Shown: positions 2,864 to 61,261 of the stretch, piece after piece
How the letters are laid out: the number at the start of each line of letters is the position of its first letter
Position numbering within the stretch: position 1 is the stretch's first letter
Program-made: the position numbers and the translations under genes
NCBI GenBank assembly: GCA_965552055.1
Contig: CBEVQO010000004.1
Location: forward strand, 1 to 64,000
Origin: an uncultured bacterium
GTDB taxonomy: Bacteria > Hydrothermota > UBA3073 > NMUJ01 > CBEVQO01
Length of the DNA stretch: 64,000 nucleotides
Reading direction: 5' to 3'
The notes under the pieces: generated by a model
The model's input: only the letters and a program-made list of their open reading frames with translations
The model's database searches: none
What the model was told of the DNA's origin: nothing

Positions 2864-2890
2864 GTTATAATCGCAATATAACAAAGTCAA
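2864..2890 (-). promoter_or_regulatory. Putative housekeeping promoter of the buk operon (TTGACT-N15-TATAAC)
   Basis: Reverse complement reads TTGACT TTGTTATATTGCGAT TATAAC, followed by AGGGGG SD. Confidence 0.6.
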
Positions 2891-2897
2891 GATAAAC

Positions 2898-2925
2898 TTG
2901 ACAAATAAGGATATTTTTTTATAAT
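2898..2925 (+). promoter_or_regulatory. Putative promoter TTGACA-N16-TATAAT
   Basis: TTGACA 2898-2903, TATAAT 2920-2925. Confidence 0.65.
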
Positions 2926-2954
2926 AAATGATGAAGTGCTCGAGGTGGTAAGAT

Positions 2955-4160
2955 ATGTTCGTATTCTTGATTACATTCTATGCCGATATTTATTCTTTTA
3001 AATACGGAGATAAAGTTCATTGCGATATTTATATATCTATTCCTTATTATGAGTTAAGGTATAAAGAGTTTAAAACTATTTATCAATCGGAATTTCAGGA
3101 GGATATAAAAATTTATGATAAAAATGGCAAATTAATCACGCAGGGAGAATGGAAAAGGATGTGTTACATTCCCTCTTACAGTGTAGCAGAGGAAAGGGCA
3201 ATGCATACCCTTGATAGATTTGAGATAGAACTTGCGCCAGGAGAATACAAATTTGAAATCAGTATAAAGAACAGGGGCAGAGAGATTAAAAGAATTGTAA
3301 AGAAAGAGTTACACAGATATGAAGGTTTTACCGTTTCGGATATAATTCTTGCGACGCTTATAAGAGCGGGTCAGCAGGGTAAATTTGTGAAAAATGGTTT
3401 GGAAATACTTGCGAATCCTTCAAATATCTTTTTAAAGAATTCAAAATATCTTTATTATTACTTTGAAATTTATGGTCTAAGGAAAGATGCTCCTTATCAG
3501 GTAATTGTTGATATTTTAAAAGGTGATAGCGTTTTACTATCTTATCCCAAGATGAGTAATTATGCGGAAGATGTTGATATTCTTTATGCTGGTGCTGTTG
3601 AAATAACAGATTTGCCTGTGGGAGAATATCTTTTGCGTGTGAAAGTGAGACAGGATAAAGATTCTGTTTGTGCTGAAAAGTGTTTCATAAAAGGAGAGCC
3701 GAAGATGGAGATTACTGCAAAAATAAGGAAATACTGGGATTTTATTGATTATATTGCCGATGAGAAAGAATTAAAGCAATATAAGAGGTTGGGCAAAGAA
3801 AATAAGGATGAATTTTTGCTGAAGTTCTGGCTTAAAAGGGGCAGGGTTGCTCTTTTTGAGCACTGTGAGCGTGTAGAATACGCTGACAAGCATTTTGCTT
3901 ATGGTAAAAAGCTGGGGCGTTATACGGATATGGGAAGGATTTACATAAAGTATGGGAGACCTGATGAAGAATTTGTTATACCTGCGACTTCTGATTATCC
4001 TGAATGCGTAAAATGGGTGTATATTGGTAAAGGTTATGAATTTATTTTCATTGACAAAAAAGGCACGGGCTTTTATGAGCTGGCTTATTCCAATGTAGAA
4101 GAAGATAAGCCTTTTTATGATTATTCAAGGTTTATAAATCCTTTAATTTGGGGGAGGTAA
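2955..4160 (+). CDS. GWxTD domain-containing protein
   Basis: FLLKFW...RVEYADKHF...GRYTDMGRIYIKYGRPD signature; GAGGT SD. Confidence 0.8.
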   Translation: MFVFLITFYADIYSFKYGDKVHCDIYISIPYYELRYKEFKTIYQSEFQEDIKIYDKNGKLITQGEWKRMCYIPSYSVAEERAMHTLDRFEIELAPGEYKFEISIKNRGREIKRIVKKELHRYEGFTVSDIILATLIRAGQQGKFVKNGLEILANPSNIFLKNSKYLYYYFEIYGLRKDAPYQVIVDILKGDSVLLSYPKMSNYAEDVDILYAGAVEITDLPVGEYLLRVKVRQDKDSVCAEKCFIKGEPKMEITAKIRKYWDFIDYIADEKELKQYKRLGKENKDEFLLKFWLKRGRVALFEHCERVEYADKHFAYGKKLGRYTDMGRIYIKYGRPDEEFVIPATSDYPECVKWVYIGKGYEFIFIDKKGTGFYELAYSNVEEDKPFYDYSRFINPLIWGR

Positions 4161-4162
4161 AG

Positions 4163-4459
4163 ATGCAGATACAGTTAAGTGCAAAAAATTTTGAACTGGC
4201 TGAAACTCTGAAGACACAGATGGAAAAGAAATTGAAACGACTGGAAAGATTGAAGGATTGGATACATTACATAAAAGTGACTTTACACAAAAGCCCACAT
4301 GTTTCAGAAGTTGAATTTGAGGTCAAACCGCATAAAGGAGATACCATGATAGTGAGAGAGGAAGCAAAAACATTGCAGAAAGCATTTGATAGCGCTCTAA
4401 AAATAGTAAAGAGGAGGATAAAAGAATATAAGAAACAAAAAGTTGATAAAAAATCTTGA
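4163..4459 (+). CDS. hpf: Ribosome hibernation promoting factor (HPF/RaiA family)
   Basis: MQIQLSAKNFEL start, AFDSALKIVKRRIKEYK end; GGAGG SD before ATG 4163. Confidence 0.8.
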   Translation: MQIQLSAKNFELAETLKTQMEKKLKRLERLKDWIHYIKVTLHKSPHVSEVEFEVKPHKGDTMIVREEAKTLQKAFDSALKIVKRRIKEYKKQKVDKKS

Positions 4460-4482
4460 CAAATCCAGAATGAAGTTATAAT
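4456..4482 (+). promoter_or_regulatory. Putative promoter TTGACA-N15-TATAAT, 8 nt upstream of the nadE ATG
   Basis: TTGACA 4456-4461, TATAAT 4477-4482. Confidence 0.7.
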
Positions 4483-4490
4483 TAAACAGA

Positions 4491-59248: not shown

Positions 59249-60136
59249 TTAAATAATCCTATTTTTAATTCCATATTTCTCACACATCCTTTTTGATTTT
59301 TCTTCAAGTTCCTTCTGATATTCTTTTGATGGTGCAAAAGAGATTTTATATAAACTCTTATATTTTGGTAAAAGCTCGGGGTAGTATTTTTCTAAAAATC
59401 TGTAATAAAGAGTTTTGCAATCCGCATGACCTTTGCCAAATAAAGTCAAACTACCGACAAAAATAAAATCCGCTCCATAATTTTTTGCTTTCCTAATCAT
59501 TTCATCGAGTTTTTCCTCAGAATCCGATAAAAACGGTAATACGGGAATGTAAGAAACACCTGCCATAAGTCCTTCTTCTTTGATTTGTTGCATCGCTTCT
59601 AATCTTTCTACAGGACTGGGGGCACCCGGTTCAAGAAGTTTTGCCAGTTTTTCATCCAAGGTTGAAATCGAAAAATTTACAATTGCACCTCTTTTTAATT
59701 TATTTTTCAAATCTTCCGGTAAAATTGCATTTTTGTCAATCTCTTTAAGCAAATCCAGATCTCTCAAAACCATGGTTGATTTCGTTAAAATATGAACTGG
59801 AAAACGGTATTTAAGAATTATCTCAAGAATTTTCCTTGTTAACTTCAGTTTTTCCTCAATTTTTAGATATGGCTCTGTTGATGTTGATATGGCGATAATT
59901 CCATATTCTCCTTTCTTTTCCCTTCTTTTCAATTGTTTTTCTAAAACTTCAGGTGCATTTATTTTTACAGATAGCGTTTTTGACATGTTTTCACCATATT
60001 TGCTTTCCCTGATATAGCAATAAATGCAATTAAAAGAACAACCAGAATATGGGTTTATTGAATAATCATCTAAAAACCATTCATCCCTCTTTTTATGTTT
60101 ATTTAATATCGATTTTACCTGAATTTCATTTATCAT
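59249..60136 (-). CDS. Radical SAM protein (SplB/Rv2578c-like)
   Basis: SINPYSGCSFNCIYC, TEPY, ILTKS, LEPGAPS...RL. Confidence 0.85.
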   Translation of the reverse strand: MINEIQVKSILNKHKKRDEWFLDDYSINPYSGCSFNCIYCYIRESKYGENMSKTLSVKINAPEVLEKQLKRREKKGEYGIIAISTSTEPYLKIEEKLKLTRKILEIILKYRFPVHILTKSTMVLRDLDLLKEIDKNAILPEDLKNKLKRGAIVNFSISTLDEKLAKLLEPGAPSPVERLEAMQQIKEEGLMAGVSYIPVLPFLSDSEEKLDEMIRKAKNYGADFIFVGSLTLFGKGHADCKTLYYRFLEKYYPELLPKYKSLYKISFAPSKEYQKELEEKSKRMCEKYGIKNRII

Positions 60137-60141
60137 TTTAT

Positions 60142-60645
60142 TTACCAGTACCTTTTACCCTGCAAAAAGGCTTCTATTCCATGTTTCTTAATCTTTCTAA
60201 GATTTTTGATATGAGCATCGCCATGATTTGGTTTTAAAAAATCGAGTTTTTTACAACTTTCGAATTCATCGCACTCCCAGCAACCCTCAATACCTTTTTT
60301 CTGACAGCATTTTCTAATCTTACAGAAAGGAGGTCCTCCACCTTTTCTACAACCTTTACATCGCATTTTAACCATTGCACCGAGAACATCGTAGCAGATC
60401 GGATAATCCTTGAACTCCTTTGCGAATTTCGAAAATTCTTTATAGGTCTTATGAAGTTTCGCCTCCCTTAATTTTTTCCTTAAATCCTTAGCTAATCTTG
60501 CAATTTCACCTTTGTAGAAAAAGCAATCACCACAGTAAAGTCCGCAATAAGCTACAAGTTCTTCATCGGGTTTATCTGTGGATTTTGTTGGGTCTTTCGA
60601 TAAAAACTCTAATTTTTTCTGCTCCTTTTCTGATAGTTTTTTCAT
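60142..60645 (-). CDS. DUF3795 family Cys-rich protein
   Basis: AYCGLYCGDC, CKGCR, CKIRKCC, CWECDEF..C. Confidence 0.8.
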   Translation of the reverse strand: MKKLSEKEQKKLEFLSKDPTKSTDKPDEELVAYCGLYCGDCFFYKGEIARLAKDLRKKLREAKLHKTYKEFSKFAKEFKDYPICYDVLGAMVKMRCKGCRKGGGPPFCKIRKCCQKKGIEGCWECDEFESCKKLDFLKPNHGDAHIKNLRKIKKHGIEAFLQGKRYW

Positions 60646-60676
60646 TCCCTCTTTTATTATCCACTTCGTATTTTTA

Positions 60677-61186
60677 TCATCGACCTTTACTTCTCAAAGC
60701 CCGGCTAATTGCTTTTTTAACATCTTTATCCTTCTCACGCATCGTCTTATCTAAAAACTCCAGACAAATTTTTGACTCTGTTTTCCTCGCCCTTATGTAA
60801 GGTGGGATTGTTGCTACCGCCAATCTTCTTAACCATTTATTATCAGAGTTTATCCATTGCTCCATCAAAGAAAATATTTCTTTTTGATTCTGAACCGCTA
60901 AATTTACAATCACCTTTATCTTTTCTAAAGCACTTATTACAATTAATCTTTCATCTCTTTTGCCTTTTTTCCATAATTTCAATAATTTTTCAAATTTCCA
61001 GTCCTCCTCCAGTAATAACTTGCCCAGTTCTTGCCCTATTGAGTTAAGCAAAGGAGTTCTGGTAAATTTAAGTTTATCGGTCTTCCCCTCCTCAAGTTCT
61101 TTTGAAATTAAAGATAAGGTTAATTCAATATCTTCTTTTTTCAATCCATCGTAAATCAACTTTGCTATTTCTTTTTTATCTTTCAT
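60677..61186 (-). pseudogene. Truncated/frameshifted HEAT-repeat DNA alkylation repair (AlkD-like) gene
   Basis: WINSDNKWLRRLA...DKDVKKAISRALR HEAT motifs; abrupt end, with a plausible C-terminal segment in another frame. Confidence 0.5.
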
Positions 61187-61196
61187 CAGGTTAAGT

Positions 61197-61224
61197 ATTA
61201 TAACAAAGAATAAAAATTTGTCAA
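61197..61224 (-). promoter_or_regulatory. Putative promoter TTGACA-N16-TATAAT with TG extension
   Basis: Read from the reverse complement of 61197-61224. Confidence 0.65.
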
Positions 61225-61234
61225 CCCATTTATC

Positions 61235-61261
61235 TTGACAAATTTAGAATTCAATTAAAAT
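61235..61261 (+). promoter_or_regulatory. Putative promoter TTGACA-N15-TAAAAT, 7 nt from the guaB ATG
   Basis: TTGACA 61235-61240, TAAAAT 61256-61261. Confidence 0.7.

Follow-up and report, generated by a model that had tools for sequence, protein, structure and literature searches.

Does the housekeeping RNA polymerase of an uncultured WOR-3 bacterium measure its promoters with a shorter ruler than that of other bacteria? The 17-bp spacer between the -35 and -10 boxes is regarded as a constant, set by how far apart sigma2 and sigma4 sit on the polymerase. The window analysed here is the first 64,000 nucleotides of contig CBEVQO010000004.1 (C4) in assembly GCA_965552055.1, and an earlier note on it had claimed that its promoters carry a 15-bp spacer, perhaps as a lineage-specific architecture, a claim that held across the genome and in a sister family. 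In all 11 of the sites on which the claim was built, we found TTGAC(A/T), exactly 15 nt and a TAnnnT box. The genome comprises 2.23 Mb in 15 contigs (35.6% GC, 97% complete), and its bacterium is probably heat-loving. Genes were called with a simple open reading frame (ORF) script, so that the term intergenic is approximate throughout.

We searched the whole genome on both strands for TATAAT downstream of TTGACA (n=1818). The box lay at 14, 15, 16, 17 and 18 nt in 7, 121, 27, 7 and 4 cases, and the reversed-pattern control gave 1 match in the whole genome. Among 637 intergenic TTGAC sites, TAnnnT stood at 15, 16 and 17 nt 329, 52 and 68 times, against 17.6 expected per offset, and 46 of the 68 matches at 17 overlap a box at 15. 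A two-matrix expectation-maximization model, applied to 739 upstream regions with half of its starting weight on 17, converged on 85% at 15, 11% at 16, 2% at 14 and 0.4% at 17; it covered 65% of the regions. A genome-wide mode of 17, which the earlier note had named as fatal to its own claim, was thus not what the counts gave; the mode was 15. The matrices themselves were canonical, both for the -35 box (TTGACA: T1.00 T1.00 G0.98 A0.97 C0.99 A0.87) and for the -10 box (TAnnnT: T0.96 A0.97 A/T A0.83 A0.76 T0.88), and with the proportions above the promoters of this genome fall outside the canonical spacer of 17 +/- 1 bp. TTGACA is accompanied by a C directly in front of it and by an A-tract lying 7-9 nt upstream. 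Within the spacer, we observed an A-rich middle and a bias towards T-16 G-15 A-14 T-13 (T-16 0.61, G-15 0.49, A-14 0.58), which lies one base upstream of the usual TG, so the canonical extended -10 TG at -15/-14 is lacking; in a relative with 17-bp promoters (G065, 15 sites), the frequencies were 0.67 for T-15 and 0.60 for G-14. The 329 intergenic 15-bp sites formed a single class, with no dyad and no second class in their spacers. We conclude that these box pairs are almost certainly working promoters for which 15 bp is the preferred spacer.

The register of the -10 box was examined through transcription starts inferred from the sequence, that is, from start codons and the 5' ends of stable RNAs. 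At 572 unselected intergenic TTGAC(A/T) sites, the 15-register showed T (0.81) and A (0.78) at its first two positions and T (0.65) at its last, whereas T reached 0.40 at the last position of the 17-register. An ATG stood 5, 6 and 7 nt past the -10 box at 96, 43 and 31 of the 329 15-bp sites. When only an ATG opening an ORF of at least 80 amino acids was counted, there were 83 cases at 5 nt, 35 at 6, 20 at 7 and 12 at 8. An ATG was found at 3 nt in 22 sites (4 opening an ORF) and at 4 nt in 9 (2). Messenger RNAs (mRNAs) with an ATG 5-7 nt past the box are likely to be leaderless, and leaderless mRNAs look common across the genome. The stable RNAs gave the same register: a pair of boxes was found no more than 70 nt from 21 of the 47 transfer RNA (tRNA) and transfer-messenger RNA genes. 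The spacer is 15 bp in 20 of these pairs, and 17 of the 20 genes concerned begin 6-9 nt past the -10 box. Both tandem ribosomal RNA (rRNA) promoters also have a spacer of 15. The earlier note had allowed that the true -10 box might lie two bases further downstream; start codons, which would then be left 3 nt away, and tRNA ends fix the register at 15. Many tRNA genes would have leaders of 1-3 nt, and the RNase P RNA match was short (278 nt versus 340-385 in three relatives).

To reveal how far this architecture extends, we scanned all 262 genomes of the phylum that are at least 70% complete with a looser pattern. This genome gave 416 matches at 15 (31 in the control), and two genomes of a sister family, whose proteins are named 'candidate division WOR-3 bacterium', gave 119 (2) and 101 (7). 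All other WOR-3 genomes had at most 59, those with more than 30 lay within about 2.2-fold of the control, and a few showed 10-16 matches against 0-3. In the sister family, the 184 intergenic TTGAC sites of genome G001 (744 kb) gave 72/34/6 at 15/16/17 with a TAnnTT box, and genome G070 (159 kb) gave 11/11/0. The -10 box thus differs between the two families, being TA(A/T)AAT here, as in RpoD-bearing relatives. Among the 262 genomes, the strong 15-bp mode is confined to one order, represented by this genome and the two sister-family genomes. Of the 201 genomes in the first sample, 68 were also counted for the exact consensus at 16 and 17. Several of them hold too few matches for a mode to be called, and the profiled relatives that gave a clear signal had their mode at 16 or 17. 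Eight genomes of family f4 served as a positive control, with 128-237 matches at 17, 1-6 at 16 and 0-2 at 15. Counts at 15/16/17 were 3/193/15 in G017 and 2/214/24 in G066, and families f5 and f6 lean to 16 (3/73/25 in G050; 4/24/6 in G100). Family f3, which had been guessed to peak at 15, was rejected on counting, as it splits between 16 and 17 (7/27/24). The 16-bp lineages (G017, G066, G160, G076 and G096) contrast with the sharply 17-bp f4, and a mode of 16 already departs from the canonical spacer. Because 15-, 16- and 17-bp modes occur in different families, spacer length is lineage-dependent across WOR-3, with the qualification that the counts come from related genomes, which as kin are not independent. 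A pattern scan of metagenomes matched at least 120 stretches, and the 80 that were examined revealed no new 15-bp lineage. Two of these stretches (L287 and L351) match this genome at 98-100%, and a third contig (L310), which has no match to it, carries TTGACA-N15-TATAAT inside repeated paralogous ORFs that are not promoters.

This genome encodes a full-length reverse gyrase of archaeal type (TIGR01054, 1108.5 bits against a cut-off of 471.7, residues 4-1074 of 1083); its gene lies 9 kb from gyrB, and the named nearest relatives of the reverse gyrase are archaeal. Of 48 genomes, 6 carry a reverse gyrase above the cut-off, namely the present genome, the two fuller sister genomes and three others with a peak at 16 or 17. 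The sole GyrA-like gene scored below the gyrA cut-off, and its product shows a clean deletion of the GyrA box and a degenerate C-terminal domain. The box was matched in 13 of 14 other aligned WOR-3 proteins, those of both sisters included, and was present as a variant in the 14th. According to PMC2647321 (this and all later papers are cited for their available parts), mutation of the GyrA box yields an enzyme like topoisomerase IV, and archaea without gyrase have relaxed plasmids. On both grounds, the DNA of this bacterium is predicted to be relaxed or overwound, and the GyrA/GyrB pair is predicted to lack negative supercoiling activity. Under a twist model (PMC9303308) at zero supercoiling, a 16-bp enzyme would be brought to 15.04 and a 17-bp enzyme to 15.97; to bring the latter to 15 would take a superhelical density of roughly +0.065 to +0.076, even with all of it as twist. 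The 15:16 ratio is sharper without the GyrA box (329:52) than in the box-keeping sisters (72:34 and 11:11). Topology alone is too small an effect and cannot cover the sister family, but it can supply one of the two bases. AA/TT periodicity, tried as a proxy for supercoiling, gave unstable periods. We also noted that GyrB here has EGESA in place of the usual EGDSA, and that gyrA of three f4 genomes (G095:C148, G080:C350 and G060:C116) is split after residue 66 in a long frame (1120-1264 amino acids), as by an intein.

Six region-4 matches were found in the genome, including a 575-residue RpoD, a 272-residue short sigma and FliA. The rpoD gene is intact, lies after dnaG and encodes all five Pfam domains, with regions 1.1, 1.2, 2, 3 and 4. 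Its product falls below the NCBIfam cut-off (TIGR02393, 284.8 bits versus 354) and has no full-length relative above 42% identity among 1.84 billion representatives, and a species-genome scan using it returned no close relative. Region 2 is 63% identical to that of 29 other WOR-3 RpoDs, which average 80% among themselves. This protein alone lacks one residue in the sigma3 helix and has one extra residue each in the finger and the linker, changes found in none of the 29 others. In region 2.4, M-K replaces the S/T/N-R pair, and P and N sit at what we take to be E. coli positions 454 and 458. The WW pair and region 4.2 are intact, and the distance from region 2.3 to region 4.2 is 149 residues, versus 147-149 in relatives. 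No single RpoD residue or length divided 16-bp from 17-bp genomes in the 29 sequences.

RpoD was present in 17 of 18 other genomes of the class and in 29 of 30 genomes of other classes, but the three sister genomes (G001, G070 and G105; 99, 87 and 66% complete) yielded no long RpoD, and another gene follows dnaG inside the contig in both genomes where dnaG was found. The sister family showed only a 275-residue short sigma and an extracytoplasmic function sigma factor (L033, L034, L047, L133 and L134), and appears to be without a group 1 RpoD. The short sigma, which has no region 1.1, was the only group 1/2 sigma in these three incomplete-to-near-complete genomes, but not in the present one, which has RpoD. 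Because no RpoD was found there, the sister family likely transcribes its housekeeping genes with the short sigma. The short sigmas of this genome and the sister family are 50% identical. The protein keeps the WW pair and region 4.2 and lacks the C-terminal helix of RpoD (a tail of 23 versus 33 residues), and its gene here lies behind a consensus 15-bp promoter. As to which sigma reads the promoters of this genome, the single promoter class and the RpoD-like -10 box favour RpoD, while the decay of RpoD and of 6S RNA favours the short sigma. A sigma28 promoter signal, sought as an internal control, was not found. The idea that sigma28 holds sigma4 rotated found no support in the available part of 10.1101/2020.01.02.893370 and was not used.

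Among the causes that the earlier note had proposed, sigma changes and DNA topology have gained circumstantial support, but a beta-flap indel was not found. There was no order-specific indel in the beta flap tip, the zipper, the zinc-binding domain or the clamp helices, and only three order-specific beta-prime substitutions occurred in 819 columns. CarD was not found in any of the five genomes searched, which gave only Mfd. The lineage-specific insertion that RpoB carries next to the beta flap is short in six families of the class, by about 50 residues relative to f4 and the other classes, and its length does not track 16 versus 17. The rpoB and rpoC genes are non-adjacent in the sister family (L104, L107 and L108), and genome G015 (C13 and C30) has two equal-scoring rpoC copies, probably an assembly duplicate.

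6S RNA presents the housekeeping holoenzyme with a mimic of an open promoter (PMC4227106). We detected this RNA in all 18 other genomes of the class and in none of the four of this order. What remains of it here is an 84-nt hairpin (z -4.0) that keeps the zapA-rny position, the closing stem and the conserved 6S end motifs. Between these motifs there are 51 nt, versus 97-141 in 12 of 12 relatives; the central bubble, the apical arm and CCCAC are gone, and no Rfam RF00013 match was obtained at E up to 1. In sister genome G001, only about 40 nt stand at this position, and the RNA is deleted.

We tentatively favour a two-step scenario, which comes close to being probable without reaching it, in which 15 results from three things together: a holoenzyme that measures close to 16 bp, DNA that is relaxed, and a sigma remodelled accordingly. 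The ruler of the housekeeping polymerase would probably have shortened to about 16 bp already, and a relaxed or overwound chromosome would shift the best fit by one further base. Sigma4 would still read TTGACA, and sigma2 would still open the DNA at TA(A/T)AAT. RpoD, with its substitutions in regions 2.4-3.0 and its indels in sigma3 and the linker, may have been remodelled for the shorter spacer, the TG having moved one base upstream, and 6S RNA, as a mimic of the old promoter, may have decayed as a consequence. In the sister family without RpoD, the short RpoS-like sigma would read 15/16-bp promoters with the TAnnTT box.

Several points weigh against this scenario. First, support for the union of this genome with the sister family in the RpoC tree is only 0.37, and the closest strong signal in the class, that of f4, is sharply 17, so that a 16-bp ancestor of the order is not established. 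Second, three other reverse-gyrase genomes peak at 16 or 17 (15/16/17 counts of 1/31/18 in G010, 1/6/42 in G068 and 1/1/12 in G006); the sister family keeps a gyrase with the GyrA box and nevertheless has its mode at 15 or 15/16; and where both enzymes are present, gyrase reportedly dominates over reverse gyrase (PMC2647321). Third, with 85% at 15 and 2% at 14, the peak is narrower than the 52% and 20% of the twist model, and the assumption of that model is generous. Fourth, the beta flap and the first 850 beta-prime residues revealed no shared indel, and 6S RNA was also undetected in 10 of 26 other-class genomes having 16- or 17-bp promoters. Finally, all of the correlations rest on one or two evolutionary events.

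The alternative that survives best, which we nevertheless consider unlikely, is that the ancestor of the order gave the housekeeping role to an RpoS-like sigma of about 270 residues that measures 15 bp, RpoD and 6S RNA then degenerating in this genome and disappearing from the sister family. The lack of a long RpoD in three of three sister genomes, against its near-universality elsewhere in the WOR-3 sample, would fit such a takeover, as would the divergence of RpoD here even in region 2, the decay of 6S RNA in both families, and a short sigma that has kept its WW pair and region 4.2, lacks the C-terminal helix of RpoD and sits behind a consensus 15-bp promoter. However, the -10 boxes of the two families differ, their short sigmas share only 50% identity, relatives with 16- and 17-bp promoters have the same short sigma, and RpoD here stands intact beside dnaG with its five domains. 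It is quite improbable that proteins alone account for the shift, with RpoD here and the short sigma of the sister family, or subtle shared changes in the core, moving sigma4 on the flap by two base steps. The sharp peak agrees with this, the 16-bp clades that have a normal gyrase but lack reverse gyrase (G017 and G066) indicate that the ruler is movable without a change in topology, and rotation of sigma4 and the flap with spacer length has been reported (PMC10216364). Nevertheless, the flap, zipper and zinc-binding domain have no indel, the three beta-prime substitutions are few, the distance between regions 2.3 and 4.2 in RpoD is ordinary, and the loss of the GyrA box would be left unexplained.

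The other explanations fare worse. An accessory factor that binds DNA or the polymerase and overtwists or bridges the spacer at most promoters is very unlikely: the biased spacer sequence would suit it, but no CarD was found in the five genomes searched, the spacers contain neither a dyad nor a second class, and no candidate was identified, no proteome-wide search having been made. MerR-type untwisting is the reverse of the overtwisting so proposed. An ordinary 17-bp holoenzyme on positively supercoiled DNA is scarcely credible; reverse gyrase and the lost GyrA box speak for it, but it needs the high superhelical density given above, the sister family has gyrase, and the sigma and 6S changes would go unexplained. 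We find it highly implausible that the spacer is deliberately suboptimal and damps near-consensus promoters, although E. coli consensus promoters with 15-bp spacers still express highly (PMC8695583), because both rRNA promoters and 20 of the 21 stable-RNA promoters with a box pair, expected to be the strongest, use 15 and a spacer of 17 is nearly absent. Least probable of all is that the boxes were misassigned, the true -10 box lying two bases downstream (TAATnT) or the -35 box two bases upstream to give 17, since most of the intergenic matches at 17 that could suggest it overlap a 15-bp box, the last-position T and the start codons fit the 15-register, and the region 4.2 residues, the upstream C and the A-tract go with TTGACA.

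The promoters of the window are listed in Table 1 together with the loci discussed above. Besides the eleven 15-bp sites, the five weaker TA-starting hexamers at 15, two 16-bp sites and the site with boxes at 14 or 16 proposed in the earlier note were all present; its 16-bp site near the window start was present as well, but is weak (TATATA at 16). As for the gene names, NCBIfam backed nadE, yjbQ, glmL, sucD, guaB, the rtcB-like gene, the 2-oxoacid oxidoreductase alpha subunit and the two TonB receptors; DUF502, buk, pheS and ricT are putative names. In five places (61197-61261, 2864-2925, 25805-25871, 35203-35280 and 39915-39992), divergent promoters stand back to back, only 7-24 nt separating their -35 boxes.

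Table 1. Promoters in the window and related loci (window coordinates unless a contig is named; G000 is the present genome).
Feature	Position	Strand	Context
15-bp promoter TTGACA/TATAAT	4456..4482	+	before nadE; ATG 8 nt past -10
15-bp promoter TTGACA/TATAAT	10803..10829	+	before TonB-dependent receptor; Shine-Dalgarno-led
15-bp promoter TTGACT/TATTTT	25805..25831	-	before ORF 25143-25802 (putative DUF502)
15-bp promoter TTGACA/TAAAAT	32611..32637	-	before yjbQ; ATG 7 nt past -10, likely leaderless
15-bp promoter TTGACA/TAAAAT	35203..35229	-	before glmL-family gene
15-bp promoter TTGACA/TATAAT	47406..47432	-	before sucD; ATG 8 nt past -10
15-bp promoter TTGACT/TAAATT	49746..49772	-	before second TonB receptor; ATG 5 nt past -10, likely leaderless
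15-bp promoter TTGACA/TATAAT	54742..54768	-	before 2-oxoacid oxidoreductase alpha subunit gene
15-bp promoter TTGACA/TAAAAT	56440..56466	-	18 nt before tRNA-Ser (56333-56421)
15-bp promoter TTGACA/TACATT	59210..59236	-	before RtcB-family gene
15-bp promoter TTGACA/TAAAAT	61235..61261	+	before guaB; ATG 7 nt past -10
Weaker 15-bp promoter TTGACT/TATAAC	2864..2890	-	
Weaker 15-bp promoter TTGACT/TAATTC	25845..25871	+	
Weaker 15-bp promoter TTGACA/TATTTA	35254..35280	+	5 nt before tRNA-Met (35286-35359)
Weaker 15-bp promoter TTGACA/TAAAAA	39915..39941	-	
Weaker 15-bp promoter TTGACA/TAAATA	39966..39992	+	
16-bp promoter TTGACA/TATAAT	2898..2925	+	minority class
16-bp promoter TTGACA/TATAAT	61197..61224	-	minority class
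Promoter with TATAAT at 14 or TAATAT at 16	62806..62833	+	
Type IIA topoisomerase gene	G000:C1:27242-29584		
gyrB	G000:C4:72209-74089		
Reverse gyrase gene	G000:C4:82892-86143		
RpoD gene	C7:57373-59100		after dnaG
6S RNA remnant (L409)	C2:320597-320680		between zapA and rny

Compared with canonical sigma70/sigmaA promoters, those of this genome share TTGACA and TA(A/T)AAT, the C upstream of the -35 box, the A-tract and, as start codons and tRNA ends suggest, a start about 6 nt past the -10 box, but the mode is 15 (85%) instead of 17 and the TG lies one base further upstream (G at -15). They work like promoters of the sigma70 type and depart from it in the spacer. Deinococcus and mycobacteria have leaderless -10 promoters with the start codon a few bases past TAnnnT; unlike these, the promoters here keep a near-perfect -35 box, and the commonest distance is 5 nt. 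The short primary sigma of Bacteroidota, the motif of which is reportedly TAnnTTTG, likewise lacks region 1.1, and the TAnnTT box of the sister family resembles that motif; however, WOR-3 promoters keep a full TTGAC, and the WOR-3 short sigma is without the C-terminal helix of two Bacteroidota sigmas. Aquifex has reverse gyrase. The one type IIA topoisomerase of Aquifex aeolicus, like that of this bacterium, has no canonical GyrA box (PMC2647321), and the loss looks independent, because the enzyme here is nearest to WOR-3 and other gyrases. The Aquifex plasmid held too few promoters for a spacer count, and the available part of PMC4227106, on Aquificales, gives no spacer. Short spacers are favoured on relaxed DNA (PMC9303308), which fits reverse gyrase and the loss of the GyrA box, but that work concerns single promoters regulated around a 17-bp optimum, whereas here the optimum has shifted genome-wide. 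In 49 species with mapped transcription start sites, spacers are mostly 16-18 with 17 predominant (PMC12641261); that survey used an E. coli-trained model, and no WOR-3 appears in the available part of its species table, nor does 'Aquif' occur in the available text. E. coli spacers span 15-21, with 17 the commonest (PMC8695583). Our literature search, outside which most subscription papers and supplements lay, brought up no primary sigma described as having a 15-bp optimum and nothing on WOR-3 promoters or sigma factors.

Taken at its widest, the reading would be that one order reset the promoter ruler by two base pairs jointly with its DNA topology, gaining reverse gyrase and losing gyrase supercoiling, that it discarded 6S RNA, that it remodelled RpoD or replaced it with an RpoS-like sigma, and that WOR-3 offers a natural 15/16/17 ladder for mapping the determinants of the spacer; as a whole this is doubtful. 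Near-perfect boxes at 15 beside relatives at 16 and 17 mean that the ruler can evolve, and they provide matched natural variants with which to test whether sigma, the core or topology sets it. The coupling between supercoiling and the spacer, an old idea, becomes testable at an evolutionary scale. Promoter predictors tuned to 17 would miss 15-bp promoters, and a polymerase that prefers 15 bp could serve as an orthogonal transcription part.

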